In this document: in pieces, positions 5,434 through 35,364 of the stretch
Position numbering within the stretch: the stretch's first letter is position 1
Layout: the number at the start of each line of letters is the position of its first letter
NCBI GenBank assembly: GCA_017542055.1
Contig: JAFXXW010000009.1
Location: 2,204-66,203, forward strand
DNA: 64,000 nucleotides
From: Kiritimatiellia bacterium
GTDB taxonomy: Bacteria > Verrucomicrobiota > Kiritimatiellia > RFP12 > UBA1067
Direction: 5' to 3'
Translations under genes and position numbers: made by a program
The notes under the pieces: model-generated
The model's input: only the letters and a program-made list of their open reading frames with translations
The model's database searches: none
What the model was told of the DNA's origin: nothing

Positions 5434-6209
5434 GATTGAAGCCCCCTTTTGGCGTCCGCACCCGACTTGATCCAAGCCATGAGGCCCGCCTTGTCACCTT
5501 GCGACAGGAGTTGCCGGAACTCGTCGATCCGGCCGGCGAAGCGCTCGACGACGGCAAGAAGATGGTCGCGGTTTTCAAGGAAAAGATCGCTCCACGTGTC
5601 CGCGTCCATCGTGGCCACGCGAGACATGTCGGCAAACGACCCCGCCGTGTAGCCAGGCGTCTCGGAAGCGAGCGGATCTTGGATGTAGGCGCCGGAGATG
5701 ACGTGGCAAAGCTGCGAGGTATAGGCGATCATCCGGTCGTGCTGGTCGGGCGTGGCGGAGACGATGGTCGTGAAGCCGAGCGCCTGCAAGACCGGGCAAA
5801 GCTTGTCCAGGGGACCCCGCCCCATGAAAGGATAGGGCGTCAAGATGATTGACGCGCCCCGGAAAAGATCTTCGTCGGCGTTGGCGAAGCCGGCAACTTC
5901 CTTGCCGGCCATCGGGTGCGCGGGGATGAACGTCCAGTTTGCTTTAAGCGCCTTCTCGCGGAACGACTCGAATACCGGCCGCTTGACGCCGCACACGTCG
6001 GTGAGGATGGCGCCCGGCTTGAAGCCGGCCTCGTGCGCCTCGATCCACGGCGCGATCGACTTGGGCGGGAGCGCCACGAAAATGATATCGACGTCCGAGA
6101 GATCGGCCGGATCGGCATGATGGAGCCCTAGCGTTTCGTAGCCGGCCTTGCGGGCCGCCTTCAACAGCGAGCCGCCGATCAGTCCCATTCCCACCACTGC
6201 GAGTTTCAT
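5430..6209 (-). CDS. tyrA: Prephenate dehydrogenase
   Basis: MKLAVVGMGLIGGSLLKAARKAGY Rossmann N-terminus, plus PAHPMAGKEVAGF and a TyrA-like C-terminal half. Sits inside the aromatic amino-acid operon. Confidence 0.8.
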   Translation of the reverse strand: MKLAVVGMGLIGGSLLKAARKAGYETLGLHHADPADLSDVDIIFVALPPKSIAPWIEAHEAGFKPGAILTDVCGVKRPVFESFREKALKANWTFIPAHPMAGKEVAGFANADEDLFRGASIILTPYPFMGRGPLDKLCPVLQALGFTTIVSATPDQHDRMIAYTSQLCHVISGAYIQDPLASETPGYTAGSFADMSRVATMDADTWSDLFLENRDHLLAVVERFAGRIDEFRQLLSQGDKAGLMAWIKSGADAKRGLQS

Positions 6210-12842: not shown

Positions 12843-13019
12843 CTACTCCTGGATTTCCAATTTGAAAATAAGCGGATGGTTGGCGCGATAGGCGTTGAGC
12901 GCGGCGAGACGCGGGGCGATGCCCTCGACGAAGATGCAGAGGACCGTCACCACCATCGCCACGCAGAGCATGCCGAGGGCGAGTTCCGTCAAGGCTTGGC
13001 CTTTGCGGTTAGTGACCAT
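12843..13019 (-). CDS. Small TadE-like pseudopilin (58 aa)
   Basis: Internal ATG of ORF 12843..13175: MVTNRKGQALTELALGMLCVAMVVTVLCIF. It has the TadE-type RKGQALxE N-terminal motif plus one hydrophobic helix. Overlaps the upstream gene end by 11 nt. Confidence 0.5.
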   Translation of the reverse strand: MVTNRKGQALTELALGMLCVAMVVTVLCIFVEGIAPRLAALNAYRANHPLIFKLEIQE

Positions 13020-14280
13020 GCGCCACGCCGCTCCCCATCGGCCGGCCGCCGCCTCCGCGACGACACGTTTTCTTGTTCCATTTGAGCCACCAGACGCCGT
13101 GTTTGCGGAACGCGGCGCGGTCCCACGTCTTGAGCAGTTTGCACCACTCGCACTTGTCGGCGTGGAGGCGGCCATGGTCGAGATACTCCGGCACGTGCAA
13201 TCGCACGTGGACGAGCCAGTCGTAATCGTCCATCGTGTTGCAGCAACCCGACACGGTCCCTAGCGGCACCAGCCGCGCGAACCGGAAGACGGGAAGCACG
13301 AAGCCCTTGGGGTCCAGCACGCCGAACGGCCGGGCCACCGACATCCAGCCGCAAGTGGAGCACGCGGACGCGCAGCCTTGGAAGTCGTACTCGGGCTTGG
13401 GCGCGCCGACCGCCGGAAAGCCGTTCTTGATGAGACTCCATTCGCCCATGAAGCCGCCGCTGAAGAAAAACCAGTACTGGTTGGGGTCGCTCGCCATATC
13501 CTCGTTGTAGCCGGGATCGATGCGGGCAAGCTCCTCCTTGGTGTAGACGTCGGTCAGCGCGCACTGGCGCACCTGGAGCCGGAGCGAGAAAAATTCGCAA
13601 TTGAGCGTGTCGACAACGTCCTTGAGATCCAGCTCCGGCCAGTCGTGGAAGTCGCGGTAGTTCTGGAGATAGTCGTAGGCGTTGAAATAGAACCAGCACC
13701 AGTCCCGGGCGGCTACGGCGTCGTAAAAAGCGTGCTCGGTCAGGATGTGGTCGCCGAAATGGCAGAACGACAAGTTGGCGCAGCCCATGTACCGGGCGGC
13801 GCCGGCGGCCTCGTAGAGCTTGTCCACGTATTCGCCCCAGGCGCCGGGGTAGGACGGCTCGTAGGGGAAGCCCTGCTCGTACACTTCCACCACCTGGCGC
13901 GCATGGTCCATCAAAATGCGCCAGGCGGCGTTGTTGTCGTCCAATTCCTTGGGCGCGAGCCCCATCTCCCCCGCCACCGCCTGGCCCGCGATATAGGCGT
14001 CGAGGGGGCCCAAGAGGCAAAGCTGGCGCTGCCGGAGGACGATTTCGTCCACCTTGGCGCCGAGCAAAGGATGCAGCTCCAGGTGCTCGAGGTTGAGCCG
14101 GCCGATTTCGTTGATGAGTTCTCCTTGGTACTGCGCCACCTTGACCGAGGCGGCGTCGATGGCGTTCTGCTTGAGCATTTTCCCGGCGAAGAAGGTGTAG
14201 AAGCGATAACTGGCCAGGGAGAGGAGCACGATCCCCACCAGCGCCATCGCCAGAAAAACCGCCACCTGTCCGCGTTTCAT
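13009..14280 (-). CDS. TadG-like (Tad_N type) membrane-anchored protein with Trp/Tyr/Cys-rich C-terminal domain of unknown function
   Basis: ATG at 14280 (ATGA overlap with the upstream stop): MKRGQVAVFLAMALVGIVLLSL...KQNAIDAASVKVAQ resembles the TadE/G-like N-terminus. The remainder (DWCWFYFNAYDYLQNY, GCASACSTCGW, GCCNTMDDYDW, DKCEWCKLLK) matches nothing I recognise. Confidence 0.5.
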   Translation of the reverse strand: MKRGQVAVFLAMALVGIVLLSLASYRFYTFFAGKMLKQNAIDAASVKVAQYQGELINEIGRLNLEHLELHPLLGAKVDEIVLRQRQLCLLGPLDAYIAGQAVAGEMGLAPKELDDNNAAWRILMDHARQVVEVYEQGFPYEPSYPGAWGEYVDKLYEAAGAARYMGCANLSFCHFGDHILTEHAFYDAVAARDWCWFYFNAYDYLQNYRDFHDWPELDLKDVVDTLNCEFFSLRLQVRQCALTDVYTKEELARIDPGYNEDMASDPNQYWFFFSGGFMGEWSLIKNGFPAVGAPKPEYDFQGCASACSTCGWMSVARPFGVLDPKGFVLPVFRFARLVPLGTVSGCCNTMDDYDWLVHVRLHVPEYLDHGRLHADKCEWCKLLKTWDRAAFRKHGVWWLKWNKKTCRRGGGGRPMGSGVAHGH

Positions 14281-14819
14281 GGCGCCGCCAGATAGTCCCG
14301 GTAATGGTTTTCGATATGCGATACGCCCGTCAGCGACACCGGGATGTCGAGAATGGCAAAGTCCATCCGCACGGAGGAGTCGTCGCCGGGCTTGACGTAA
14401 AGCGTGCGCCAATATTCGTACTCCATGAAGCCGGCCGCTTCGGACGGGGTTTCACGCCCCATGTAGAGCCGGGCCAGCTGCACCACCGTAGCCGCGCGGA
14501 GGCGGAGTTCTTCCGAGAGTTCCTCGTCGAGGAGCTCTTCGTCTTCGGCCGCGAGCTCGGGCAGGTTGGCCTCCAGTTCTTCGGCGTCGGGCCACAGCCG
14601 CGCGCCTGCCACGGTCATCACGGCCACCCGGGCCACTTTGTTGCAGACGAAATCGTTGAGCCCCACGGTGCGCGCCCGGGCCACCCGGGAGGCGGAATAC
14701 TCCAGCATGATCTTGACCGTGAGCAACCGCGCCAGGAAAAAGAGCGCGAAAAACAAGAAGGCGACGAAGAGTACGGCCACGACCGACTCCACCATCGCCT
14801 GTCCGCGCCTGAGACGCAC
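14277..14819 (-). CDS. TadE-like pseudopilin
   Basis: GTG start. (M)RLRRGQAMVESVVAVLFVAFLFFALFFL is a TadE-type N-terminus. An acidic stretch follows (AEDEELLDEELSEE). Confidence 0.55.
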   Translation of the reverse strand: MRLRRGQAMVESVVAVLFVAFLFFALFFLARLLTVKIMLEYSASRVARARTVGLNDFVCNKVARVAVMTVAGARLWPDAEELEANLPELAAEDEELLDEELSEELRLRAATVVQLARLYMGRETPSEAAGFMEYEYWRTLYVKPGDDSSVRMDFAILDIPVSLTGVSHIENHYRDYLAAP

Positions 14820-14820
14820 T

Positions 14821-15042
14821 TCAGTCCTCGCCCAGATTGCGGATGGAATCGGTGCCGACTTCCTCCACGGCCGCCTTGGCCTTTTCGCCCTCTTCGGCCG
14901 ACAACATGCTGGCGGCGCCGGCAGTCTTCTTGCCGATGGCGCGGGCGAGATAGCTGAACACCGCTATGAGCGACACCGCGATCAGGCACACGATGATGAT
15001 GTATTCCACCATCGTCTGGGCCTTGCGCATTTTCTTCATCAT
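14821..15042 (-). CDS. Flp/Fap-family pilin (73 aa)
   Basis: MMKKMRKAQTMVEYIIIVCLIAVSLIAVF carries the Flp motif (G/A)xxxxEY followed by a hydrophobic helix. Position -1 is Ala instead of Gly. RBS AAGGAAA lies upstream. Confidence 0.6.
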   Translation of the reverse strand: MMKKMRKAQTMVEYIIIVCLIAVSLIAVFSYLARAIGKKTAGAASMLSAEEGEKAKAAVEEVGTDSIRNLGED

Positions 15043-15057
15043 GGTTGTTTTCCTTTC

Positions 15058-15201
15058 TTAAGGCACGCCCGCCGAGAGCAGCGCCACCGTTTCGGTTTCG
15101 TGACGGTAGACGGCGCGGAAAAAATACGCGAAGACGACCGACAGCATCAGCATGCCCGCCAGCACCAACACGTATTCCACCATCGTCTGTCCCGTGCGCA
15201 T
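15058..15201 (-). CDS. Flp/Fap-family pilin (47 aa), not in ORF track
   Basis: My translation reads MRTGQTMVEYVLVLAGMLMLSVVFAYFFRAVYRHETETVALLSAGVP*. It has the G|QTMVEY Flp motif after a 4-residue leader and shares the QTMVEY core with the 73 aa paralogue. Confidence 0.55.
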   Translation of the reverse strand: MRTGQTMVEYVLVLAGMLMLSVVFAYFFRAVYRHETETVALLSAGVP

Positions 15202-15216
15202 GGATGGGTTTTCCGG

Positions 15217-16647
15217 TTACTTGAACATCTGCATGGAGATCGCGCCGGCCACGGCGCTGACCACCGACGAAATCGCGTTGAGCTCGTCGGCCGATACGCG
15301 CAGCACGAAGGCGTAGTCGTCCGCGTCGCGCCAGGCGGCTCCGGCCACGGCGCCGTTCTGGTTGTCGGCGAAAGCCATCATGACGGCGCGGATGGTGGGC
15401 TTCACGTCGTCCGGCGCGGCGGCCAGCACGTCCGGCGCCACCGCCCGGATGATGCCGTAGGGCGAGGAGACGGCGGCCGCGTTGAGCGAGCGGCCCTGCA
15501 CCTCCGGCAGAATTCTGGCCAGCTTGGCCGAAGGCGAAACCGGCGCCGGGCGGTTCTTGACGGAAAACGCCATGCCCCAGGGACGGTATTCGTGGCCGGG
15601 CTGGATCTGGTCCGCCTTGGCGGCGATGGCGTCGATCTCCGCCTGGAAAGTCTTATCGTCGAAGGTAGGCTGCTCCGCCTCGTCCTGGAGGTAGCCGATC
15701 AGCGACACAGTGTCGAGCTCCAGCAGGAGATTGTCGCCCTGCCTTTCGCGCTTGAGCCACGAAAGATCCAGCCGGTTGCGTTCGGCGCTGGCCAGCATTT
15801 CCCGGACGAGCTCGCCCGCCCGGTCGAACGCGGGGCCGTCCACCATCGTCACGCTCGCCGACTGGGCGCCGGCCGGGGCGAAAGCAAGCACGTCGCCCGT
15901 CAACGGCGAAACGCTCATGCGGTCGAATTCGCTGCCGGGCCGGACGCGGATGGCGCCATGCAGATCCACCCCGAGATCGTTGACCAGGAGTGCCAGCTTG
16001 ATGCCGTCCATGTCTTTGATATACTCGAGCGCGTCGTCCATGTCTTCGTCGAAGTTTTCGTCGCAGAAGCGCTGGGCGGCCGCCTCCATCCGGCGCATGC
16101 AGGCACGGGTCAACTCGAGCTGGACGAGATCGCCCGCCATCTCAGACCGGGCCGCGGGAAATTCCCCGGCCGCCAATTGAGCAATTTCGCGGCTTTCGGC
16201 CACCGCCACCCACTGCCCGTCCTCCGAAAAAATCGCATACTTGGGCTTGCCGTTTTCGGCCTCGATATACTTGACGATGCCGTCGCGCTCGCGCGACTTG
16301 AACTGCTTGGCGCAGAATTGCGCTTTGTTCAGCGTGGTCGGCAGCACCAAGGCCGCCTCCAAGTCGTCATCGTTGATTTCGGCGTCCGCTTTGGCGGTGT
16401 CGAGATAGGCCAAGAGCAGAATGGGGGCGTCGATCCGGCATTCGCCCAGCTCCTGTTCCACGGCTTCGCTCATGACCGCGATGCCCACCACCACGCCCAA
16501 GGGGTAATTGACGAATTCGCCCACCTTGGTGGCGGCTTGCACGAGCTGCGCGCGTCCTGTCGCCTTGATCGAACCCATCTTTTCCGGTACCGCGAAGGTC
16601 GCGGACGCCAGGCACAACGCCGCCAGCAGCGGCGCAAACTTTTTCAT
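15217..16647 (-). CDS. Secreted protein of unknown function (476 aa)
   Basis: Signal peptide MKKFAPLLAALCLASATFA. AAGGAG RBS lies 7 nt upstream of the ATG. First gene after the promoter at 16678-16706. I recognise no domain. Confidence 0.6.
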   Translation of the reverse strand: MKKFAPLLAALCLASATFAVPEKMGSIKATGRAQLVQAATKVGEFVNYPLGVVVGIAVMSEAVEQELGECRIDAPILLLAYLDTAKADAEINDDDLEAALVLPTTLNKAQFCAKQFKSRERDGIVKYIEAENGKPKYAIFSEDGQWVAVAESREIAQLAAGEFPAARSEMAGDLVQLELTRACMRRMEAAAQRFCDENFDEDMDDALEYIKDMDGIKLALLVNDLGVDLHGAIRVRPGSEFDRMSVSPLTGDVLAFAPAGAQSASVTMVDGPAFDRAGELVREMLASAERNRLDLSWLKRERQGDNLLLELDTVSLIGYLQDEAEQPTFDDKTFQAEIDAIAAKADQIQPGHEYRPWGMAFSVKNRPAPVSPSAKLARILPEVQGRSLNAAAVSSPYGIIRAVAPDVLAAAPDDVKPTIRAVMMAFADNQNGAVAGAAWRDADDYAFVLRVSADELNAISSVVSAVAGAISMQMFK

Positions 16648-16677: not shown

Positions 16678-16706
16678 ATTATATCATATTTCCGGAGATT
16701 TTTCAA
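16678..16706 (-). promoter_or_regulatory. Sigma70-type promoter of the Flp/Tad-like operon
   Basis: Minus strand reads ccgTTGAAAaatctccggaaatatgaTATAATaga, with -35 TTGAAA, a 17 nt spacer and TGA-extended TATAAT. A ~30 nt leader carries AAGGAG. Confidence 0.7.
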
Positions 16707-16727: not shown

Positions 16728-19700
16728 TCAGTCGTCCGCCAGCAAGATGGCCGGGATGAAGCAAAACGCGAGCGCGTGATCGTTCAGATAGCGCACGGTG
16801 ACTTCGATGTCGCGGCCTTTGAAATTGTGGAAAGCGTCCAGCCAGCCGCCATAGAGGCGCATCGACAGTTTGCAGGTCTCGGCGTTGTAGGCCACCACCC
16901 GCATATCCTTGGGCGAATAGCGGATGCCCACGCCGAGCGCCTTGGAAACGGCCTCCTTGGCGCACCAGAAGCGGATGATGGTCTGGGCGGGATTGAGCGC
17001 GTGCGCGGCGAGGTCGAGCTCTACGGGATTGAAGACGCCGGCGGTGAAGTCTTCGGAGAGATTGCGGGTGGCGTTTTCCACGTCCACGCCGATCTTGACG
17101 TTGGCGCCCGCGAGGGCGATTACGAACTGGGCGGTGTGGGCGATGGCGATGTCCAGCTTGGCGGAGAGGAAGTCCAGCCACTCGCCGATGGCGTAGGGCT
17201 TGCCCATGTCGTTGGTGCAGATGGTCACGTCCGCGTAGCTCCACCGCGCCTGGTAGTAGTCCTTGAGGAAGCGCCGCACGGCCTCCTTGGCGGCGATGCG
17301 CCCGAAAAGCCACTCGGTGCGGCGCGCGGTGACCCCGGTTTTCTTGGCGAAGGTGCGGCGCTCGATGTCCGACAGGACGATATGCGAAAACGTCTTGAGC
17401 CACACTTCCTCGTCGCGCTCGAAAAGTTCGTAAGGGATGCCGGTGATGTAGGCCGCGCTGACGTCTGCCGGGGGCGCGCCGAGCGTCTCCTTGGACATGT
17501 CCTGCGAGATGAAGCTGGTGGCCGGCTGCATGACGAGCTGCTGGTAGCCGGGCGGAATGCGCTGCGAATACTCTTCCCAGCCGTCGATCGTCATGAGCGC
17601 GGTGCCGTTGCCGTCGGACACGACGATGTCGCACAGCTGGCTCTTGGGGGTGACGCCCGTCAGGCGCAGATAGCAGCGGAGATTCTGGTCTTCCTTGGGG
17701 GGCGCGTTATGGAATTCGATCTTCCGCACCTTGAAGGGAAACGACCAGGCGCCCGCGAAACGTTCGTGCGACCGCCACAACCGGAAGCCGTTGGTGATCG
17801 TCTCCAAAAGAAGCGGATTGACCTGCCACAGGGGGAACAGCGTGTGGCCCACGCAACCGGCCAGTTTGGGCACCGTAAGTTCGTAATCGAGTCCCGTTTC
17901 CGACCACGCCCCCACGAATTTGATGGCGCGTAGCCGCGCGCCGCAGCTCAGCCGCCCGGGATAGATGTCGCGACCGGCCCAGTGGACCGAGCGCGGTTTC
18001 AGGAGCTGCTCCGGCATGGCGGGGACGGGATCGCCGAACTGCTTGGCGAACGTGAACACGCCATCCATCACCGGCCAGGTGTAGCCGGCCTTGCCGTCGC
18101 CCGTGAACACCATGGCCTTGACCGCCATCAGATTGGCGTCGCCCGAGGCCACGCGTTCGGCCTTGAGAAAGAGCTCCAGTTCGCCGCCCTTGAATTCCAC
18201 CGTCTTGCGCGACTGCAGATCCTCGATGGATACCAGCTCGCGGTTGGGGGCGATGTAGGTGCAGAGCTCGGCCATGATTTCGGCCGCGACCGGCATGGTG
18301 AGCAAAACGAGTCCGCGCAGATTGGGGTCGGAATACGACAGCTGGCTCGTGCCCAGTGCCGAATCGGCGATGAACGGCAGTTCCGACAGCTTGAAGTTCT
18401 TGCGCATTTCGATGGACACGCCGGGCACGTGCTCGAGCGTGTCGGCGTCGGAAATGAGCGGATTCATGGCGCCGGCCTCGAACTGGCGCTGCCGGCGCGC
18501 CCGCGCTTCCATGGCGGCGGCGCGGGCGGCCACCTTGGCGATGCGGCCCTTGGGCTCGGCCAGCGGCGAGATGGAAGGCAGGAGCCCTTCCGGCGAGGCC
18601 AACGTCAGACGCGGAAAGCGACGCGAAAGCTTGAGTTCGCGCTCCTGGCGGACCTCCAGGGAAAAGGCGGAATCGAAATCGAGTTTGCGGGCGTGGCGGC
18701 GTTCGAGATACTTGCCGATGTCCACCTTGGCGCCCAACGCCGCCAATTGCGCCAACGCGTGCTGGAGCTGGAGGAGTCCGCGCCGATGGATGGAGTTGGT
18801 GGCGATGGCGGCGTGCTCGCGACCCTTGAGCGTGTCCTCCACCGCGGCCGTAATCATGCCGCGCGGTCCCACCTCCAGAAACACGCGGTAGCCGTCCGCG
18901 TACATGGTTTCGATCGTTTCGCGGAAGCGGATGGGCTTGATCCAGCGCGTCACGGTGTCTTCGCGCTGCGGCCGGATGCCCTTGGCCACCAGCGCGGCGG
19001 TGGCGCAGGAGTAGACGGGCGCGTAAGGCTCGAAACGCATCCACTTCTGGGCGAAGCGCCGGAACTCCGGCAGCAGTTTTTCGCAAGCCGGGGTGTTGAA
19101 GGGACGGTTGAGCGCCAGCTTGGAGGTTTTGACTCCATGTTCGGCCAGGATGCCCGCGATCAGTTCTTCGGCGGACTTTTCGGCCGCGTACACCTTTTGC
19201 CGGGGCGAGAGATCGTTGACCAGCCGGAAAGCGCCCGGCGGAATGCGGGCCAAGGCGGCCTCGAGATCGGCCTCGTCCTTGACGATGAGCGAAAGCATGG
19301 CGGCTTCGGGGAGGCCGGCGTGGTCCACCGCCTTGTCCACCAGCCGGTAGAGATCGCGGATGATTCCGATGCGATCCTGTCGGCCGGGATTGCGACCGAT
19401 CGAGCCGGACTCGATGAGCGAGGCCACGTCGCCCCCGGCGAATCCCACCACGCCTTCGGACTCGAGCCCGAAAAAGTTGAGGATGCGCTTTACCGCCACG
19501 CAGCCGGAATAGGTGGCCACCAGCGCCTGCGCGTACGCCCCGGAGGAAAAGATGTCGGCGTCGTGCCGGTAGTACGGGGCGGGCGGAAAGATGAAGCTCG
19601 AGGGCACGAAGTTGCCGGCGTCGCCCTTGAGCGCCTCTTCCAGCTCGTCGAAAGCCGAACGGCACTCGGGGTAGAGGTAGGCCAGATCGCGCATCATGTC

Positions 19701-20039
19701 GGGGTAGAAACTCATCACGCCCGGAAACACGAAAGCCAGCTTGCCGGCGCCCGCGCCCAGGAGCGGCTCGGAGAAATAGTAGGTGCCGCTCTTGTCCCGG
19801 ATGCGCTTTACTCCCGCGCCCTCCAACCGGCTTTTGGCGGAAGCGAGCCGCTGGCGGAGATCGGCCACGGAGTCGGTCACGATGGCCAGCGTCTGCGGTC
19901 CCCGGGAGAAGCCGCAGGTATAGGCCACGTCGCACAAGTTGGAATCGGGCGCGCGATCGAGAAAACCGACGATCCGGGCAACCTGCGCCAGCAGCGTTTC
20001 GCGGTCGGGCGCGCGGACGATGACCAGCTCGGTGCTCAC
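16728..20039 (-). CDS. PKS-like multidomain protein: post-KS linker, AT-like, PS-DH-like double hotdog and Sfp-type 4'-phosphopantetheinyl transferase
   Basis: 1103 aa, GTG start, GTGA overlap with the KS-like stop. The AT-like region has KLAFVFPGV...GVVGFAGGDVASL. The DH-like region has LPFIADSALG...LLTMPVAAEIMAE. The C-terminal PPTase has KIGVDVENAT and FWCAKEAVSKALG. Confidence 0.65.
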   Translation of the reverse strand: MSTELVIVRAPDRETLLAQVARIVGFLDRAPDSNLCDVAYTCGFSRGPQTLAIVTDSVADLRQRLASAKSRLEGAGVKRIRDKSGTYYFSEPLLGAGAGKLAFVFPGVMSFYPDMMRDLAYLYPECRSAFDELEEALKGDAGNFVPSSFIFPPAPYYRHDADIFSSGAYAQALVATYSGCVAVKRILNFFGLESEGVVGFAGGDVASLIESGSIGRNPGRQDRIGIIRDLYRLVDKAVDHAGLPEAAMLSLIVKDEADLEAALARIPPGAFRLVNDLSPRQKVYAAEKSAEELIAGILAEHGVKTSKLALNRPFNTPACEKLLPEFRRFAQKWMRFEPYAPVYSCATAALVAKGIRPQREDTVTRWIKPIRFRETIETMYADGYRVFLEVGPRGMITAAVEDTLKGREHAAIATNSIHRRGLLQLQHALAQLAALGAKVDIGKYLERRHARKLDFDSAFSLEVRQERELKLSRRFPRLTLASPEGLLPSISPLAEPKGRIAKVAARAAAMEARARRQRQFEAGAMNPLISDADTLEHVPGVSIEMRKNFKLSELPFIADSALGTSQLSYSDPNLRGLVLLTMPVAAEIMAELCTYIAPNRELVSIEDLQSRKTVEFKGGELELFLKAERVASGDANLMAVKAMVFTGDGKAGYTWPVMDGVFTFAKQFGDPVPAMPEQLLKPRSVHWAGRDIYPGRLSCGARLRAIKFVGAWSETGLDYELTVPKLAGCVGHTLFPLWQVNPLLLETITNGFRLWRSHERFAGAWSFPFKVRKIEFHNAPPKEDQNLRCYLRLTGVTPKSQLCDIVVSDGNGTALMTIDGWEEYSQRIPPGYQQLVMQPATSFISQDMSKETLGAPPADVSAAYITGIPYELFERDEEVWLKTFSHIVLSDIERRTFAKKTGVTARRTEWLFGRIAAKEAVRRFLKDYYQARWSYADVTICTNDMGKPYAIGEWLDFLSAKLDIAIAHTAQFVIALAGANVKIGVDVENATRNLSEDFTAGVFNPVELDLAAHALNPAQTIIRFWCAKEAVSKALGVGIRYSPKDMRVVAYNAETCKLSMRLYGGWLDAFHNFKGRDIEVTVRYLNDHALAFCFIPAILLADD

Positions 20040-21439
20040 GTGCGCACCTCCGGTTCCTCCTCCAGGATCAATACGGAGCTGCGGCCGCCGCGCGTATCGA
20101 TGCCGTCAGAGGTGACGGGATCGAAATTGGCGCCCAGCACGGCGGCGCGACGCGGATTGGCGGCGTCGCCTTTGATCCAGGGCCGGGGCTCGCTCAGCAG
20201 ATAGGCGCTGGAGGCGAGATTGGAAAGCTTGAGCGACGGATGCGGCACCGCCACCTGGGGCGCCAGCACCTTGTGGTGCAGGGCGAGCGCCGCCTTGACC
20301 GTGCCGGCCGCCATCGAGGCCCTGAGCGTATGGCCGATGTTGCCCTTGACGGAGCCTACGCCCACCAGCGGACCGCCGGGGACGTGTTCGCCCCACAAAC
20401 TCTGGATGACGGCGATTTCGCGATCTTCGGCGCGCTTGATGCCCGAGCCGTCGGCCTCGATCAGCTCGATGGACTTGACGGGAATCCCGGCCTCCTTCAC
20501 CGCCAGCTTGAAGAGGCACGCCGGATCGTCCTCCGGATTGTGGCCGATCGTGACCGACTTGATGAGCGCGTAGATGCGGTCGTGGTCTTTGAGCGCGTCC
20601 TCGCGCCGCTTGAGGACGAAAAACGCCCCGCCCTCGCCCGGCACCGTGCCCTTCTGGTTTTCGGCGAACGGCGCAAACTCGGGCGCGTCGGAAAAATCCA
20701 CCTCGCCCGAAACGCCTTCCAGATAGGCGCGCGACAACGGCGGCGTGATGGCGCCCGCGAGCGCCACTTCGCAATGGCCCGTCAGAAGATCGTTCACCGC
20801 GCCCCGGATGGCGGCCGCGCCCGTGAGCATGCCCGCGTCCAGAATGGTGGCGCCGCCCGCAAACGAGGTTTCGCGCGCGATCCAGGAGACGAAGCGATAG
20901 CCCGAACCCATGAGGAAACTGGCGGCGTTGGGGGCGGGGAGCGAATCCGACAGCCGCGCGGCGATCATGTCCATCTGCTCTTCGGGCGCATGCGGGAAGA
21001 ACCGGCGGATGATGTCGAGCGTCTGGTCGAGAAAGGCGGTGTGCTGCAGCCAGTTGACGGTGGAGGCGTTGAACGGCGGCGCGTACCCCAGCCGCACCGA
21101 GCCCGCGCGCATGTGGCGGCTGCGCGGACGCATGGAGGCGTCGGCGAGGGCGTCGAAGGCGAGCTGGGTGGCGAAGTACAGATCCTGGTTTTCGCCCGCG
21201 TTGATCTGGCGGGGAAAGGTCTGCATGGAAGGAACGCACGCGAAGAGATCGCCCAATTGGCCCATCCGCACCGGATACGGCCGCTTGAACACGTTCTGCT
21301 GGCCGATGGGCAGTTCCACGTCCGCGCCCGGCAAGGTCAGCATCGAGCGCTGGTTCATGATGGCGTCCCAATACGCCTCCAGCGAAGGACAACCGGCAAA
21401 ACGGCAACTCATGCCCACTATAGCTATCGAGTTATCCAT
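20036..21439 (-). CDS. Beta-ketoacyl synthase-like protein lacking the active-site Cys
   Basis: 467 aa. IAIVGMSCRFAGCPSLEAYWDAI is a type-I KS N-terminus. ILDAGMLTGAAAIRGAVNDLLTGHCEVALAGAI sits where DTACSSS is expected. EADGSGI sits where EAHGTG is expected. GNIGHTLRASMAAG is retained. Confidence 0.65.
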   Translation of the reverse strand: MDNSIAIVGMSCRFAGCPSLEAYWDAIMNQRSMLTLPGADVELPIGQQNVFKRPYPVRMGQLGDLFACVPSMQTFPRQINAGENQDLYFATQLAFDALADASMRPRSRHMRAGSVRLGYAPPFNASTVNWLQHTAFLDQTLDIIRRFFPHAPEEQMDMIAARLSDSLPAPNAASFLMGSGYRFVSWIARETSFAGGATILDAGMLTGAAAIRGAVNDLLTGHCEVALAGAITPPLSRAYLEGVSGEVDFSDAPEFAPFAENQKGTVPGEGGAFFVLKRREDALKDHDRIYALIKSVTIGHNPEDDPACLFKLAVKEAGIPVKSIELIEADGSGIKRAEDREIAVIQSLWGEHVPGGPLVGVGSVKGNIGHTLRASMAAGTVKAALALHHKVLAPQVAVPHPSLKLSNLASSAYLLSEPRPWIKGDAANPRRAAVLGANFDPVTSDGIDTRGGRSSVLILEEEPEVRT

Positions 21440-21463: not shown

Positions 21464-21556
21464 TGGCGGAGGGAGGGGGATTCGAACCCCCGGTACGGGT
21501 TTACCCCGTACGACGATTTAGCAAACCGCTGCCTTCAGCCACTCAGCCATCCCTCC
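21464..21556 (-). tRNA. tRNA-Ser (anticodon GCT), CCA encoded
   Basis: The reverse complement folds as a cloverleaf. Acceptor GGAGGGA/TCCCTCC, anticodon loop TTGCTAA, long variable arm GTACGGG-GTAA-CCCGTAC, T-arm GGGGG-TTCGAAT-CCCCC, discriminator G plus CCA. Confidence 0.85.
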
Positions 21557-21577: not shown

Positions 21578-21606
21578 ATTATATCATATTTTCTGTTCGC
21601 CGTCAA
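21578..21606 (-). promoter_or_regulatory. Sigma70-type promoter upstream of tRNA-Ser
   Basis: Minus strand reads cgTTGACGgcgaacagaaaatatgaTATAATatc, with -35 TTGACG, a 17 nt spacer and TGA-extended TATAAT. The -10 directly follows the nagA stop codon, and the -35 lies inside the nagA 3' end. The tRNA 5' end is 21 nt below the -10. Confidence 0.65.
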
Positions 21607-24294: not shown

Positions 24295-26844
24295 TCAGTC
24301 CTGCTTCTTGAGCGTCTTCAAAGTGAGCCCGGCCAGATCCTTGCCCTGCTCGCGGAAGATGAAGCTCGAAACGTAGGCCGTAAGTACGCACACCACGAGT
24401 CCGATGCCGCCCAGGAGGAACGGATGGAACTTGAGGCCGAACACGTCGCAGCCCATGATCTCGCAGCTGAAGCACACGAAGTAGTTGGCCGCGAGGCCCA
24501 GCACCGCCGCCACGCCCTTGATGCGCGGCATGAAGACACCCATGAAGAAGAGTCCGGTGAGGCCGGCCGTGAGCATGGCGATGTACTTGTTGAAGTTGTC
24601 GAACAAGGCGCTCGACTCCATCCGCGCCAGCGTCAGCGCCGCCATGATGCCGAGGACGCCCACCACGTAGGTGCACACCTGGCCGCAACGGATCTGCGTC
24701 TTGCCGGGGATGTCGGGCTTGAAGCGCTTGATGAAGTCGGTCACCACCGCGGTCGAAGCCGAGGACAGGTTCGCCGAGAGCGTGGAGATGGTGGCGGCGA
24801 ACACGGCCGCGATGACGAGCCCCGCGAGCCACGGCGGCATTTCGGTGGCCATGAAGATGGGCAGCACCGAGTCGCCCTTGGGCATCGTGACGTCCATCGC
24901 CTCCGGGTGAGTGTGGTAGAACGCGAAAAGCGCCATGCCGATGCCGTAGAACACCACCTGCGCGAACACGCTCATGCAGCCGTTGAACCACAGCGAGCGC
25001 TTGGTGGCGTTTTCGTCGGGCGTGGCGATGTAGCGCTGGATCACGCACTGGTCGGAGGTGTAGCTGGAGAGGTTGGAGATGAGACCCTGCACCGCCACCA
25101 CCCAGAACACGGGCTGCGTGAGGATGAAGCGGAAGTCCCACATGGTGTTCTTGCCGTAGCTGTCGGCGACGTTCCAGAAAGTGGCGAAATGCGCGCCGGG
25201 GGCGCCGGTCTTCATGATGAGCAGCACCAGCACGCTGACCGCGCCGCCCATGAGGACGATGCCCTGCACGAAGTCGCTCCAGATCACGGCTTCAAGTCCG
25301 CCCAGCGAGCAGTAGATCATGGTGAGGATGCCGCAAATGAGGATGCACGCGTCGATGGAAACGCCCGTCACCGCGTTGAGCGCGATGGCCGGGAGCAACG
25401 TCACCACCGCCACGCGGCAGACCATGAACACCACGAACGCCGCCGACCCGAAGAGCCGCACGCCCAGGTTGAAGCGCTTCTCCAGATACTCGTACGCCGA
25501 GGTGATGCCGAGCCGGCAGAAGAACGGCAGGTAATAGTAGATGGCCACCGGCGCCATGCCGATGATGAAGAACGCCATCACGAAGTAGCGCCAGTCCTGC
25601 AGATACGCCTGGGTGGGGATGGCGATGAAGGTTATGGACGAAAGCATCGTGGCGAAAATGGACATGCCGGCCACGTACCAGGGGATGCGGTTGCCGCCGC
25701 GGAAATAGTCGTTTTCGTCCTTCTTCTTGAAGATGAAGATGCAGGCCATGCCCACCATCAAGAGCGCGTACACGCCCACCACCGCCCAGGCCGTGGCGCC
25801 GAACTTGCCGGTCTTGCGGAAGTTGGCGGCGCTCACGCGGTCCGTGCGCACTCCCGGCGCCACCTCGCCGCCGGCGATCACGAGCGTATACTGCTCGGGC
25901 GTCTTGCCGGGCTTGAGGCCCACCGCGGCGCCGCAACGGGGAACGTCGTCCGGAGCGATTTCGCCGTATTCGCACCACGCGTCGGTCACGCAGTTGTAGG
26001 CCAGCACCTTGCGCTGCCAGCCGAGCTTGACCGGGTCGGTTTCGGCCGAGCCTTCGATGGCGCGCGCGATCCAGCCCTGTTCGCCGAAGCCGCCCACCAG
26101 GAGGATGTGCTGGTGGCCGCTGGGCAGAAATCCCGCGCCGATGACGGTGGTGTTCTCGGGGAGCGGCGCCAGCTCCACCCACTTCTCTTCCGCGAGCACG
26201 TACGCGTAGCCGTCCTTGAGCGGAGCGAGCGTGGCGGGATCGTAACCGCCGTAGATCACGAGCCGCTTCTGCTTCTGGTCGCCGTTCTGGATGGCCGCCA
26301 CCGGCTGCAGACGCTCGCACGCCGACGGAATCTCGCCCAGCAGCTTCCACTCGCACGCGGCCGGGTCCTTTACGTCGCCCACGTAGACGTTCTTGCGACC
26401 CACCACGTACACCTTGGAGCCGTCGGCCGCGGCCGCGCCCATCGTGACGCCTTCCGGCAGCTCCGGCAGCGGCTTGATTTCGGCGCCGTTCAGGAGATAG
26501 GCGTCCTTGAACGCCTCGCCGCCCGCCCGGTCCGTGCCGCCCGCGCAGAAAATCCAGCCTTGGACTTCGGCGCTGACGCCCTCGCCCGCGGGATGCGGCA
26601 ACGTGCCCGTCTGCGTCCAGGCGCCGTCGGCCCCGCGCACGCACACGGCGTCGCCGAAGACCTTGACCCGGCCGCCTTCGGGCGTGGCGACGAAATCGGT
26701 TCCGCCCGCCATCACGAATCTGCCGTCGCCCGCGAATCCGCCGAACGCCCTGGCCGCCTTGACGGGGGCCTGCGCCGGAGCCTGCCATTCGATCGCGACC
26801 GGAGTCGCCAGCATCAACGATGCCGCAATGAGTACGCTTGTCAT
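24295..26844 (-). CDS. Fusion of NanM-like (Kelch/mutarotase-type) periplasmic domain and sodium:solute symporter (SSS family, sialate-transporter-like)
   Basis: ATG at 26844 (ATGA overlap with the sialidase stop). Signal-like MTSVLIAASLMLATP, then ~350 aa of Gly/Trp-rich beta-propeller-like sequence, then an SSS core (GGNRIPWYVAGMSIFATMLSSITFIAIP, GGLEAVIWSDFVQG). Confidence 0.65.
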   Translation of the reverse strand: MTSVLIAASLMLATPVAIEWQAPAQAPVKAARAFGGFAGDGRFVMAGGTDFVATPEGGRVKVFGDAVCVRGADGAWTQTGTLPHPAGEGVSAEVQGWIFCAGGTDRAGGEAFKDAYLLNGAEIKPLPELPEGVTMGAAAADGSKVYVVGRKNVYVGDVKDPAACEWKLLGEIPSACERLQPVAAIQNGDQKQKRLVIYGGYDPATLAPLKDGYAYVLAEEKWVELAPLPENTTVIGAGFLPSGHQHILLVGGFGEQGWIARAIEGSAETDPVKLGWQRKVLAYNCVTDAWCEYGEIAPDDVPRCGAAVGLKPGKTPEQYTLVIAGGEVAPGVRTDRVSAANFRKTGKFGATAWAVVGVYALLMVGMACIFIFKKKDENDYFRGGNRIPWYVAGMSIFATMLSSITFIAIPTQAYLQDWRYFVMAFFIIGMAPVAIYYYLPFFCRLGITSAYEYLEKRFNLGVRLFGSAAFVVFMVCRVAVVTLLPAIALNAVTGVSIDACILICGILTMIYCSLGGLEAVIWSDFVQGIVLMGGAVSVLVLLIMKTGAPGAHFATFWNVADSYGKNTMWDFRFILTQPVFWVVAVQGLISNLSSYTSDQCVIQRYIATPDENATKRSLWFNGCMSVFAQVVFYGIGMALFAFYHTHPEAMDVTMPKGDSVLPIFMATEMPPWLAGLVIAAVFAATISTLSANLSSASTAVVTDFIKRFKPDIPGKTQIRCGQVCTYVVGVLGIMAALTLARMESSALFDNFNKYIAMLTAGLTGLFFMGVFMPRIKGVAAVLGLAANYFVCFSCEIMGCDVFGLKFHPFLLGGIGLVVCVLTAYVSSFIFREQGKDLAGLTLKTLKKQD

Positions 26845-28031
26845 TTTTTGATTATGTATTGGGATTTGAGTGTACAGAAACGGATGTCGGTCTCGCCCGA
26901 CCCTTCGAAAATCACGCCCAGGTCCGGCGGATTGCCTTTGATTCTGGCCGGGATGAGGCAAAGGTCGCTATAGGACGCCTTGCCCGGCTCGATCGTCAGC
27001 CCTTCGCTCCACGTCTGGCCGTCGTCCCAGCTGGTGCGCAGCGTGAGATTGCTGCGGCCGCCCGCCTTGCAGTTGGAAAACACGAGAATCTCCTCGGGAT
27101 ACTTCACCGCGCCCACCTTTTTGCCGGCGTACTTCTTGCCCAGCGGATAAGTCATGATCTGCGCGTTGCAACGCCCGTCCTGCAAACTCTTGTCGGACCG
27201 GTGCGACCAGGTTTCGCCCTGGTCGGGCGAGACGAACACTTCGCGCGCCCCCATGTCCTTGCGCGAGTTGATCATGAGCTCGCCGGACGAAAGTTCCACC
27301 ACCTTGCACTCGTCGCCCGGCTGCGTGGTGGGCTTGCCGTAAGCCTTCCAGGTTTCGCCGCCGTCCTCGCTGCCGAAAAGCGCCACCGCCTTGTTCACCA
27401 AAACCACCGTGTGCAGAAGCGTGCCCTCCTTGGTCTGAATGCCCGAGCCGGAGGTGATGAACACGAAACCGTTCTTGGGCCAGCCTTGGGGGCGGATGTC
27501 CGCCGTGATGTCCCGGGGCTCGCCCCACGTCTTGCCGTTGTCGGACGACTCCTGCACGTACTGCTTGTAGATGCCGGCCTCCTTCACGTATTCGGCCACG
27601 TTGTAGAACAGGAATATCTTCTTGGCCTTTTCGTCCACGATGAAGCTCGGGTCCGACCCCGCCCACTTCTCCTCGGCGTCCCACTTCCATTCGTGCGAAT
27701 AGACGGAAGGCGTCCAGGTTTTGCCGCCGTCCTTGCTGGTGCGCACGGCGATGTTGATCTTCTGGTAGTCGCCGCCGGGGCCGCCTTTGCGGTTGAGGTC
27801 CTGCGCGTGGTCGTAGCGCGCGTCGCACGCCGCCACCAGCGTTTTGCCGTCGGGAGCGGTGCAGAGCGCCGGAATGCGATACACCTTGACGCCGTTATCG
27901 CCGTTTTTCCACAACACCGTCTGCTTGGAAGCAGCCGCCTTGGGAGCCTTTTTGCCGCCCTGTTTCTGGGGCGCGCCGAACGCCACCAGCGACGCCATCA
28001 CTGCCGCCGCAAGAAGAATCTCGCATTTCAT
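26841..28031 (-). CDS. nanH: Exo-alpha-sialidase (GH33, BNR/Asp-box repeats)
   Basis: Internal ATG at 28031 of ORF 26841..29402. Signal peptide MKCEILLAAAVMASLVAFGA, YRIPAL (RIP motif), and repeated Asp-boxes SKDGGKTW, SSDNGKTW, SEDGGETW, SPDQGETW, SWDDGQTW. Confidence 0.85.
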   Translation of the reverse strand: MKCEILLAAAVMASLVAFGAPQKQGGKKAPKAAASKQTVLWKNGDNGVKVYRIPALCTAPDGKTLVAACDARYDHAQDLNRKGGPGGDYQKINIAVRTSKDGGKTWTPSVYSHEWKWDAEEKWAGSDPSFIVDEKAKKIFLFYNVAEYVKEAGIYKQYVQESSDNGKTWGEPRDITADIRPQGWPKNGFVFITSGSGIQTKEGTLLHTVVLVNKAVALFGSEDGGETWKAYGKPTTQPGDECKVVELSSGELMINSRKDMGAREVFVSPDQGETWSHRSDKSLQDGRCNAQIMTYPLGKKYAGKKVGAVKYPEEILVFSNCKAGGRSNLTLRTSWDDGQTWSEGLTIEPGKASYSDLCLIPARIKGNPPDLGVIFEGSGETDIRFCTLKSQYIIKK

Positions 28032-30812: not shown

Positions 30813-32504
30813 TTACGTGTAGCGCAGCACTTCGTCCACCGTGGTGTAGCCGTCGAGAATGGCGCGGATGCCGTCTTCGCGCATGGTGCGCATGCCGAGT
30901 TCGCGCGCTTTCTCGCGGATGATCAGGGTGGGGGCCTTGTTGTTGACGAGTTCGCGCAGCGGATTGGACATGCGCAGATACTCGAACACGCCTTTGCGGC
31001 CCTTGTAGCCGGTGCCGTTGCAGGTCTTGCAGCCCTTGCCGAAATAGAACGGCCGTCCGCCGATCTGGTCGCGCGTCATCTCGATGCGTTCCAGGGTTTC
31101 GTCGTCGGGCTCGTACGGCTGCTTGCAGTCTTTGCAGCAGGTACGCACGAGACGCTGGCCCAAAACGCCTTCCAAAGTGGACGACAACAGGTACGGCGCC
31201 ACGTTCATGTCCACGAGACGCATCACCGCGCCTGCGGCGTCGTTGGTGTGCAGGGTGGAGAACACGAAGTGGCCGGTGAGCGCGGCCTGCACGGCGATTT
31301 CGGCCGTCTCGAGGTCGCGGATTTCGCCGATCATCATGACGTCGGGGTCTTGACGCAGGAAGGCGCGCAGCACCTTGGCGAAGGTGTTGCCCACCTGCGC
31401 GTCGATGGGCACCTGCACGATGCCGTCCACGTTGTATTCCACCGGTTCCTCGGCGGTGAGGAGCTTGGTGTCGATCTGGTTGATGCGCCGGAGGACGGAA
31501 TAGAGCGTGGTCGTCTTGCCGGAGCCGGTAGGCCCCGTCACGATGAAAATGCCGTTGGGCTTTTCGATGTCCATCGTCACCTGCTCGTACACGTCTTCGG
31601 GGAGGCCCACGTTTTCGAGGTCGAGGCTCGTGGCGGACTGGTCCAGAATACGCATAACCACCGATTCGCCGTGCGCGGTGGGCAGACACGATACGCGCAG
31701 GTCCACGGGCTTGCCCGCCACGGTGAGCGCGATGCGGCCGTCTTGCGGAATGCGGCGCTCGGCGATGTTGAGGTTGGCCAGGATCTTGATGCGGCTGATG
31801 ATGGCCGGCGCCATCTTCACGTCGGGCGCCTTCATTTCGTACAGCGCGCCGTCCACGCGGTAGCGGATCTTGAAATCGTCCTCGAACGGCTCGATATGGA
31901 TATCGGCCGCGCGGTCCACCACGCCCTGGTAGAGCACCAGATTGACGAACCGGATGATGGCCGAGCTGTTGGCGGCCGACTCCATCGAGGCGATGTCGTT
32001 GGCGTTGGCGGCTCCAAGGGCGGCTTCGTCGTCCGTCATGCCCTCGCCGAGCTGCTTGATCATGTCGGCCACGGAGTCGTTGCTGTCGCCGTAGTACTGC
32101 GAAATCCGCGCCATCACGTCGGCCTCGCGGGCGAAGACGAAGCGCACTTCCTTGGACAGCGTGAAGAGCATTTCGTCGGAGATGCGCGGATCCACGAGAT
32201 CGAACGTGGCGAGCGTCACGGAACTGTCGTCCGCCGCCACCGGGAACACGTTGTACATGCGGGCGGTGGAGGCGGGGATCGCCTCGGTCACTTCCGTTTC
32301 GATCGTGAGGTTGCCGAGGTCGATGGCCTCGGTGTCCTGGTAGGCGGCCATGGCGCCCAGGAGGTCGTCCTCGCTCAGGATCTGCTGGTCGATGACGAGC
32401 TGGCGGATGGTTTTGCCTTCGGTCCGGGCCACGTCCTGGAGATCGCGGGCGGACTCCTCGTCGATGTAGCCGTTCTGGACCAGAATCTGAAGTAGCGCGT
32501 CCAC
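30813..32504 (-). CDS. GspE/PilB-family secretion/pilus-assembly ATPase (paralogue 1)
   Basis: 563 aa, GTG start. N-terminal T2SE_N-like domain (ARDLQDVARTEGKTIRQLVIDQQILSEDDL), Walker A GPTGSGKTTTLYS, Asp/His boxes and a tetracysteine motif (CKDCKQ...CKTCNGTGYKGR). Confidence 0.8.
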   Translation of the reverse strand: MDALLQILVQNGYIDEESARDLQDVARTEGKTIRQLVIDQQILSEDDLLGAMAAYQDTEAIDLGNLTIETEVTEAIPASTARMYNVFPVAADDSSVTLATFDLVDPRISDEMLFTLSKEVRFVFAREADVMARISQYYGDSNDSVADMIKQLGEGMTDDEAALGAANANDIASMESAANSSAIIRFVNLVLYQGVVDRAADIHIEPFEDDFKIRYRVDGALYEMKAPDVKMAPAIISRIKILANLNIAERRIPQDGRIALTVAGKPVDLRVSCLPTAHGESVVMRILDQSATSLDLENVGLPEDVYEQVTMDIEKPNGIFIVTGPTGSGKTTTLYSVLRRINQIDTKLLTAEEPVEYNVDGIVQVPIDAQVGNTFAKVLRAFLRQDPDVMMIGEIRDLETAEIAVQAALTGHFVFSTLHTNDAAGAVMRLVDMNVAPYLLSSTLEGVLGQRLVRTCCKDCKQPYEPDDETLERIEMTRDQIGGRPFYFGKGCKTCNGTGYKGRKGVFEYLRMSNPLRELVNNKAPTLIIREKARELGMRTMREDGIRAILDGYTTVDEVLRYT

Positions 32505-33629: not shown

Positions 33630-33657
33630 TGGTAGGCTCCTTGGAAGAACGGAAGTT

Positions 33658-35325: not shown

Positions 35326-35335
35326 GTATGAGAAT

Positions 35336-35364
35336 ATTATACAATATTCCCGACAAAAAAGCAA
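35336..35364 (-). promoter_or_regulatory. Sigma70-type promoter of the pilB-pilT-pilB-polA unit (near-leaderless)
   Basis: Minus strand reads cgcTTGCTTttttgtcgggaatattgTATAATattctcatacATG, with -35 TTGCTT, a 17 nt spacer and TATAAT. There are 10 nt between the -10 and the ATG at 35325. Confidence 0.6.

Follow-up and report, generated by a model that had tools for sequence, protein, structure and literature searches.

What does a polyketide synthase (PKS)-like gene pair contribute to a cell when the residues expected to make it a synthase have been replaced, and the phosphopantetheinyl transferase (PPTase) fused to its end appears to have kept its own? The question is raised by two adjacent genes of a Kiritimatiellia bacterium (assembly GCA_017542055.1), located in a stretch of 64,000 nucleotides of contig JAFXXW010000009.1 (positions 2,204 to 66,203 of the forward strand), hereafter the window. 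This gut/rumen member of the Kiritimatiellae has a GC content of 64%. One gene encodes a ketosynthase (KS)-like protein, and the other a large protein that consists of a linker, an acyltransferase (AT)-like domain, a second linker, a double-hotdog dehydratase (DH)-like domain and an Sfp-type PPTase (Table 1).

The initial annotation of this locus proposed that the pair is a non-condensing scaffold or adaptor that would present or regulate the PPTase, rather than a biosynthetic PKS. This is still the best fit, because an alignment of the catalytic columns and a survey of homologues, either of which could have overturned it, both failed to do so. Overall, the pair is best explained as a pseudoenzyme scaffold carrying a PPTase that acts on a carrier protein encoded elsewhere, a reading to which we assign a probability of about 0.6. 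The descriptive part of this reading stands on far firmer ground than what it says of the target of the PPTase and the role of the scaffold. The pair is probably not a polyketide or polyunsaturated fatty acid (PUFA) biosynthetic locus or a natural-product cluster.

Active sites of the two proteins

The two open reading frames (ORFs) share a GTGA stop/start overlap on the minus strand (20036-20039), with GGAGG 7 nt before the GTG start, and GC content by codon position marks both as real genes. Coordinates, lengths and the overlap on which translational coupling had been proposed were all reproduced; a GTGA overlap with a Shine-Dalgarno site would fit a 1:1 stoichiometric complex. The domain order originally read from the translations is likewise that recovered by Pfam, NCBIfam and PDB alignments and by AlphaFold2 (AF2) models.

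The KS-like protein has a thiolase-type KS fold. It scores above the Pfam thresholds for PF00109 and PF02801 (75.3 and 61.8 bits against a cut-off of 20.8), and its AF2 model (pLDDT 75) is matched by Foldseek to the DEBS, Pks13 and bacillaene KS domains with E~1e-30. The catalytic columns of the KS and AT were taken from HMMER alignments to solved PKS structures. In these alignments, DTACSAS has become DAGMLTG, with Met in place of the nucleophilic Cys (M204, 20828-20830), and EAHGTG has become EADGSG, with Asp in place of the first His (D330, 20450-20452). GNIGHT is retained, and the second His (H370, 20330-20332) and K365 are present. These are the changes that had been noted by eye, with one correction: Met at the Cys site is peculiar to this genome and is no conserved replacement. 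Among 48 relatives, the column is unconserved, occupied by Met, Val, Ile, Asn, Leu or Ala, and none of them has the Cys nucleophile. Conversely, D330, K365 and H370 are invariant in 48/48 KS-like sequences, which therefore lack the His-His pair, the first His being Asp.

The AT-like domain aligns with the structures of CurL, salinomycin synthase and FabD (phmmer E 5e-17 to 1e-11) and with AT domains in Foldseek, and its Acyl_transf_1 score of 22.2 bits lies under the Pfam cut-off of 32.7. Both the Ser nucleophile and the distal His are missing: GQGSQ reads GVMSF, GHSxG reads GFAGG (Ser column A201, 19437-19439) and AFHS reads PFNT (N315), as the first reading had it. In 55/55 relatives, the Ser column holds Ala, Val, Gly or Leu and the His column holds Asn; in 121 intact relatives, both catalytic residues are invariant.

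The fold of the DH-like domain is supported by a beta-rich AF2 model (residues 534-827) and by Foldseek, with a PS-DH score of 20.3 bits under the 23.7 cut-off. Its columns were judged against the 121 intact family members. LxDHTLG has become IADSALG, where S560 (18360-18362) replaces the catalytic His, and the degeneration goes beyond this loss, which was the only one claimed originally: the Pro of HxxxGxxxxP is T581, FHGP is SCGA, and the invariant Asp of LDxxGQ is E746. The His column is filled by Phe, Tyr, Ser, Cys, Thr or Gly in the relatives and the Asp column by Glu, Gly, Gln, Ala or His, compared with 100% His and Asp in the intact members. Thus, at the KS Cys and first His, the AT Ser and His, and the DH His columns, the window proteins carry Met, Asp, Ala, Asn and Ser, respectively, and nowhere a functionally matching Cys, Ser or His. 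No substitute nucleophile has become fixed, given that what were once catalytic columns now vary among inert amino acids.

The AF2 model of the large protein (pLDDT 70.6) is confident for the linker and AT-like domain, of medium confidence for the double hotdog, disordered in the post-AT linker and poor in the PPTase. Foldseek aligns CalA3 KS-AT-DH-KR (KR, ketoreductase), PsoA, MAS and fatty acid synthase (FAS) with it across 850-1000 columns, covering AT and DH. NCBIfam yields strong partial matches to PfaA, type I PKS models and FabD at the expected segments, those to PfaA and type I PKS being the best for the pair. The curated PfaA and PfaB models fall far short of their thresholds (TIGR02813, 142.6 and 87.4 bits against 1010; TIGR02816 pfaB_fam, 16.7 against 144).

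The PPTase is the only competent-looking active site that the pair apparently retains. It exceeds the cut-offs of PF01648 (ACPS; 53.1 bits against 25) and TIGR00556 (48.3 against 45.35). Its two halves (residues 881-975 and residues 982-1090) both resemble AcpS in alignments with AcpS-type structures, as in a pseudo-dimer, and the PPT domain of yeast FAS (2was) is a weak sequence match to the second half. The catalytic residues are H968 in IAIAHT, D986 and E988 in GVDVE (17076-17084), and K1028, E1029 and K1033 in FWCAKEAVSK (Lys-Glu at 16953-16958). All six are invariant in 55/55 relatives, in agreement with the earlier impression of intact motifs. By the motif definitions of PMC3098273, the domain has a P1a-type 'xGxP' (MGKP) and a P1b'-like 'hShxH' (IAIAH).

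A hidden acyl carrier protein (ACP) between AT and DH was considered and rejected. The candidate, a DSL-like 'LDFDSAFSLEV' (about 454-464), is part of the post-AT linker, a region in which modular PKSs carry a conserved linker motif. AF2 shows no helical bundle there (pLDDT <50 over residues 470-526), an ACP profile misses it, and intact 1104-aa relatives have a post-AT region of equal length together with an ACP encoded by a separate gene.

Parent family, loss of active sites and selection

The pair belongs to a large, mostly catalytically intact family related to PUFA-synthase-like 'secondary lipid' synthases. An exhaustive profile search returned 10,915 relatives (844 at E<1e-30), typically 1100-1900 aa long, with the order [KS]-linker-AT-(ACP)-DH-PPTase. 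Of the 150 best representatives, 121 keep GEGSQ, GHSxGE and YHTP together with the DH His and Asp, so that fusion of a PPTase to KS-AT-DH is common and normally catalytic. Such fusion is already known: it is widespread in this family, and integrated PPTases have been reported in the literature (PMC3098273, PMC13291983). In Allokutzneria, a protein with enoylreductase (ER), KS, AT, ACP and KR domains (ER-KS-AT-ACP-KR) adjoins a single KS-AT-DH-PPTase protein, and a Chitinivibrionales metagenome-assembled genome (MAG) has ER-KS-AT-ACP, then KR-DH, then KS-AT. The secondary lipid synthase arrangement has been described, as Type M, for Renibacterium and Frankia (PMC3098273).

Several known systems resemble the pair. 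The PfaBC-PPTase subunits of Type M (Shulse & Allen 2011; Renibacterium, Frankia) share its KS-AT-DH-PPTase order, comparable to a single 1475-aa protein at locus L027, and hybrid clusters of Aquimarina and Flavobacterium as well as PfaC-PPTase of Pseudoalteromonas DS-12 are also of the PfaBC type with an integrated PPTase. The known PfaBC-PPTases have intact sites and lie beside a PfaDA-like ER-KS-AT-ACP-KR protein, whereas the Kiritimatiellae pair is split after the KS, has lost all KS, AT and DH residues and has no partner nearby. The enediyne PKSs (PKSE; CalE8, SgcE, DynE8), iterative type I enzymes, likewise carry a C-terminal PPTase in cis (PMC3107222); however, they are catalytically active and have an ACP and a KR between AT and DH, where the pair shows no PP-binding or KR match and only the short 441-533 linker. 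No PKSE structure is among the PDB matches listed for the pair. With no ACP or KR and with PfaA-type models as the best NCBIfam matches, the PKSEs were rejected as the parent family. The alpha-subunit of fungal type I FAS also joins a PPTase permanently to a KS-containing megasynthase, but that PPTase is AcpS-like and trimeric, the synthase is fully active with its own ACP, and the overall architecture is not homologous.

A closer intact relative, one of the uncharacterized split iterative synthases of metagenomes, is encoded by a compact operon at L031:7919-15247 (protein P0271/P0135), with a PfaA-like KR (218 aa), a KS with Cys-His-His (467 aa), an AT-DH-PPTase protein (1104 aa) and an ACP-like protein (99 aa). 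The split point, sizes and domain order match those of the pair, with 31% identity for the large protein (P0135) and 31% for the KS. L031 keeps Cys-His-His, GHSxGE/YHTP, the DH His and Asp, the KR gene and the ACP-like gene, all of which the window lacks. The ACP-like protein has FQS for the usual DSL. Its gene is followed in the operon by that for an alkaline-phosphatase-family protein, and beyond the operon lie genes for esterases and an RND pump.

In a neighbor-joining tree of 132 sequences, computed without bootstrap values, the representatives without the DH His, 13 in number, group together in a single exclusive clade. Only one member of this clade still has the AT Ser, and the AT His is missing from an inner group. 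The partner KS keeps Cys-His-His in the basal loci L034 and L038, where the AT and DH have by then lost their catalytic residues and neither an ACP nor a KR gene lies close by; its Cys is Ala or Ser in L036 and L029; and the KS Cys and first His are both gone only in the gut Kiritimatiellae group. Read from this unbootstrapped tree, the order of loss within the single clade appears to be DH, then AT, then KS.

A scan of one genome per species yielded 25 close loci, nearly all labeled as gut or rumen Kiritimatiellae and some as Verrucomicrobia or Lentisphaerae. The KS-like gene immediately precedes the large gene in 24/24 Kiritimatiellae loci with enough upstream sequence, and across most of these 24 the identity is 67-72% for the KS-like and 51-61% for the large proteins. 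At 90% identity, metagenomic sequences of the two proteins fall into over 500 and over 700 clusters, respectively. At NCBI, the KS-like protein is named either 'polyketide synthase' or 'hypothetical protein'. Two loci, L003 and L008, are filed under Barnesiella intestinihominis and Gemmiger sp. but hold a Kiritimatiellae-type pair of about 60% identity at 64-65% GC. The Barnesiella genome has about 44% GC, and on the strength of this difference both contigs were probably mis-binned.

All domains of the pair are under purifying selection. Against the closest relative, dN/dS is 0.064 for the KS-like protein, 0.21 for the linker, 0.076 for the AT-like domain, 0.089 for the post-AT segment, 0.098 for the DH-like domain and 0.030, the lowest value, for the PPTase. 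The reading frames are unbroken in all loci, hundreds of positions outside the PPTase are invariant, and lengths stay near 467 and 1100 aa over 13 clusters defined at 50% identity, the most distant being 31% identical to the query.

Partner genes and possible roles of the pair

A carrier protein for the PPTase was sought in the window and in 36 related loci, an area of 574 kb in all. In the window, a small custom-built ACP profile and a PPTase profile, both searched with the highest sensitivity in all six frames, revealed neither a carrier protein nor a second PPTase, in keeping with the absence of a carrier-protein motif from the pair and its surroundings remarked on at the outset. Over the 574 kb, tblastn with PfaDA, KR-DH, KR, KS and ACP queries, together with the ACP and PPTase profiles, gave matches within the pair alone. 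No KR, ER, ACP, PfaA-like or second synthase gene lies within about 10 kb in the inactive-clade lineages, and no ACP-bearing PfaA- or PfaDA-like partner occurs anywhere in the area. The only relatives with adjoining KR and ACP genes are distant ones (about 30% identity or less) that are catalytically intact. Over the same area, the close relatives are not ordinary PfaB- or chain length factor (CLF)-type subunits beside ACP-bearing synthases, an arrangement that, if found, would have refuted the scaffold proposal by the terms set at the outset.

The neighbors of the pair are housekeeping genes that differ between lineages, with only three recurrent ones: genes for a KamA-family radical SAM protein, a FadD-like AMP-ligase (close to the pair in 5 loci) and ketopantoate hydroxymethyltransferase (panB). 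In three separate deeper lineages, all belonging to the inactive clade, the KS-like gene is directly preceded by panB, the gene for the first step of pantothenate and hence coenzyme A (CoA) synthesis, an adjacency that suggests an operon joining CoA precursor synthesis to the PPTase.

The two genes would, then, be halves of one PKS-like module, descended from a PUFA-synthase-like iterative synthase family with its own C-terminal Sfp-type PPTase. On the lineage to the gut Kiritimatiellae, the DH, AT and KS residues would have been lost in turn, and the KR and ACP partner genes would have gone. By analogy with KS-AT didomains, the KS-like protein probably dimerizes and binds the large protein through its linker-AT region and post-AT linker, as the KS of the intact split relatives must also do. 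This complex may take the pantetheine arm of CoA and load it onto a carrier protein encoded elsewhere, most plausibly the ACP of fatty acid synthesis, and the dead KS, AT and DH, ancestrally ACP-docking, might be kept for assembly, for capture or presentation of the carrier, or for regulation. A more specific version, which we put forward only tentatively, is that the module is an ACP-docking or -sensing platform for the main, perhaps the only, PPTase of Kiritimatiellota, coupling the supply of holo-ACP to CoA/pantothenate or fatty-acid status, with the Asp-Lys-His remnant of the KS binding the pantetheine arm or acyl-ACP as a ligand, not as a substrate.

Several observations weigh against a simple PPTase scaffold. 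For the PPTase domain, AF2 gives a poor model (pLDDT 25-79), and for this reason the description of the PPTase as intact stands on motifs and profile scores. The KS-like protein is under stronger constraint than the AT-like and DH-like parts, and this constraint, together with the invariant D330, K365 and H370, hints that it does more than hold a PPTase. Moreover, in 15 gut-clade loci, the KamA-family gene (about 290 aa) is directly 3' of the AT-DH-PPTase gene, often overlapping it. Its product matches the lysine 2,3-aminomutase model, 417 positions long, over positions 85-333 only, and tblastn detects no copy of the gene in the window.

Alternatively, the pair could be a non-catalytic biosynthetic subunit of the CLF (KS-beta), KS0 or PfaB kind, working in trans with a distant ACP-bearing PfaA-like synthase and activating its ACPs, with a PUFA-like secondary lipid still being made; we consider this unlikely. 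In CLF and KSQ domains, Gln is conserved where the Cys would be and both His are kept for decarboxylation, and CLF, KSQ, KS0 and PfaB all work beside an active AT and ACP. The resemblance is real insofar as all of these, like the KS-like protein, have a KS fold without Cys inside a synthase: the PfaB KS domains of docosahexaenoic acid (DHA) producers have no active-site Cys yet influence the product (PMC3098273). Furthermore, the parent family works in this way in Allokutzneria and the Chitinivibrionales MAG, and selection acts on all domains of the pair. However, pfa-type genes are normally clustered (PMC3098273), and here no partner lies within about 10 kb of any inactive-clade locus or in the window, in neighborhoods that are made up of housekeeping genes and change between lineages. 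None of the 48 KS relatives has Gln at the Cys column, which is unconserved, unlike that of CLF and KSQ, and the His-His pair that those proteins keep has given way to an invariant Asp at the first position. With KS, AT and DH dead together, the PPTase is all that remains for such a subunit to contribute.

Somewhat less likely still is that one of the 'dead' domains performs non-canonical catalysis, for instance as a KS-like decarboxylase or thioester-binding enzyme using K365, H370 and D330, or as an AT-like hydrolase. Both the conservation of the KS-like protein relative to the AT-like and DH-like parts and its three invariant residues would be explained, and basal members of the clade keep the full Cys-His-His KS beside dead AT and DH, from which it follows that the role of the KS outlived the rest of the module. 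Against covalent catalysis speak the variable, hydrophobic nucleophile columns of KS, AT and DH; the malonyl-binding GQGSQ, GHSxG and the distal His are all lost, and no cofactor-binding or new motif was detected with Pfam or NCBIfam. That KS, AT and DH are merely decaying remnants of a broken cluster, in which only the PPTase matters, would agree with the loss of all canonical catalytic residues and of the KR and ACP partner genes. It is nevertheless highly improbable, and we reject it because dN/dS (0.06-0.21 for the non-PPTase segments) shows purifying selection; the intact frames, the lengths held down to 31% identity and the invariant positions point the same way.

A PPTase on a scaffold of dead synthase domains would have a bearing beyond this locus. 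A literature search for a dead-scaffold PPTase, for PKS or hglE-KS of Kiritimatiellae, or for a fully dead yet conserved module clade found nothing relevant. The clade provides a clean natural series of stepwise pseudoenzyme conversion in which every domain is still under purifying selection, and can be used to ask about non-catalytic roles of synthase domains, such as docking, assembly and carrier-protein capture. If the pair is a housekeeping PPTase, it represents an unusual solution to an essential function, the activation of carrier proteins, in a poorly studied gut/rumen phylum; if the platform version holds, it would be the first instance of an entire synthase module being kept to serve post-translational activation in primary metabolism, as a regulatory scaffold or an adaptor. 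In practice, genome-mining tools keyed on KS and AT may count the pair as a PKS or PUFA cluster, and genes of this type that NCBI names 'polyketide synthase' should not count as biosynthetic potential in Kiritimatiellae MAGs.

Transcription unit and surrounding genes

Table 1. Features of the gene pair, its flanks and related loci (window coordinates unless a locus is given; residue numbers refer to the 1103-aa protein)
Feature	Position	Strand	Basis or remark
KS-like gene	20036-21439	(-)	467-aa ORF
AT-DH-PPTase gene	16728-20039	(-)	1103-aa ORF; stop codon 16728-16730
KS-AT linker, residues 1-95	19755-20039	(-)	sub-threshold Pfam CurL-like_PKS_C and RhiE-like_linker; high-confidence AF2
AT-like pseudo-acyltransferase, residues 96-440	18720-19754	(-)	PDB alignments; NCBIfam FabD/PfaA/PKS partial matches; Foldseek to PKS AT
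Post-AT linker, residues 441-533	18441-18719	(-)	low confidence; mostly disordered or single-helix
Double-hotdog DH-like pseudo-dehydratase, residues 534-830	17550-18440	(-)	sub-threshold PS-DH; AF2; Foldseek
Sfp-type PPTase, residues 866-1103	16731-17444	(-)	Pfam ACPS; TIGR00556; PDB matches; motifs
tRNA-Ser (anticodon GCT)	21464-21556	(-)	ARAGORN; 24 nt before the KS-like start codon
Sigma-70-like promoter 5' of tRNA-Ser	21578-21606	(-)	TTGACG, 17-nt spacer, TG-TATAAT; 11/12, consensus match only
Sigma-70-like promoter 3' of the pair	16678-16706	(-)	11/12 match; precedes the gene for a 476-aa protein
Partner KS with Cys-His-His	L034:1702-3114, L038:5877-7256		AT and DH already dead
KamA-family gene (examples)	L002:6391-7254, L003:4804-5688, L007:13287-14204		and 12 other loci; TIGR00238 passed
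panB	L029:7735-8574, L038:5085-5867, L040:7790-8587		directly upstream of the KS-like gene

Since one promoter-like sequence precedes the tRNA gene and a second follows the pair, tRNA-Ser, the KS-like gene and the AT-DH-PPTase gene likely form a single transcription unit that starts at the promoter 5' of tRNA-Ser. Between this promoter and position 16728, the minus strand contains no terminator-like site except a weak 5-bp stem within coding sequence (19748-19735). The gene for the 476-aa protein is counted as a separate unit on account of its own promoter.

The initial annotation had placed the pair between a tRNA-Ser and a Flp/Tad-like operon. The tRNA was found, with anticodon GCT; the operon is represented only by sub-threshold matches among the genes 3' of the pair (13009-16647, minus strand), namely to Flp/Fap pilin in a 77-aa ORF (E=2e-4, 14827-15057) and to TadE in a 180-aa ORF (E=1.7e-3). 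The 476-aa protein (15217-16647) has an N-terminus that looks by eye like a signal peptide and has no family match, and the 422-467-aa ORF in the same segment has none either. No gene of this segment is a conserved neighbor of the pair. Elsewhere, the window contains genes for aromatic-amino-acid and leucine biosynthesis, prolidase, NagA, transporters, PolA and secretion ATPases.

Some of these genes are unusual in their own right. An 818-aa ORF (3019-5475, minus strand) combines chorismate synthase, type I 3-dehydroquinase and shikimate dehydrogenase in an unusual fusion of shikimate-pathway enzymes. An 888-aa ORF (24295-26961, minus strand) is a fusion of a Kelch domain resembling N-acetylneuraminate epimerase (NanM) with a sodium:solute symporter. 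The genes for NagA and for an alanine:sodium symporter adjoin it, and the fusion may serve sialic-acid uptake. Downstream of polA, three consecutive genes encode secretion or pilus ATPases of the T2SSE family (563, 374 and 568 aa; 30813-35364, minus strand).

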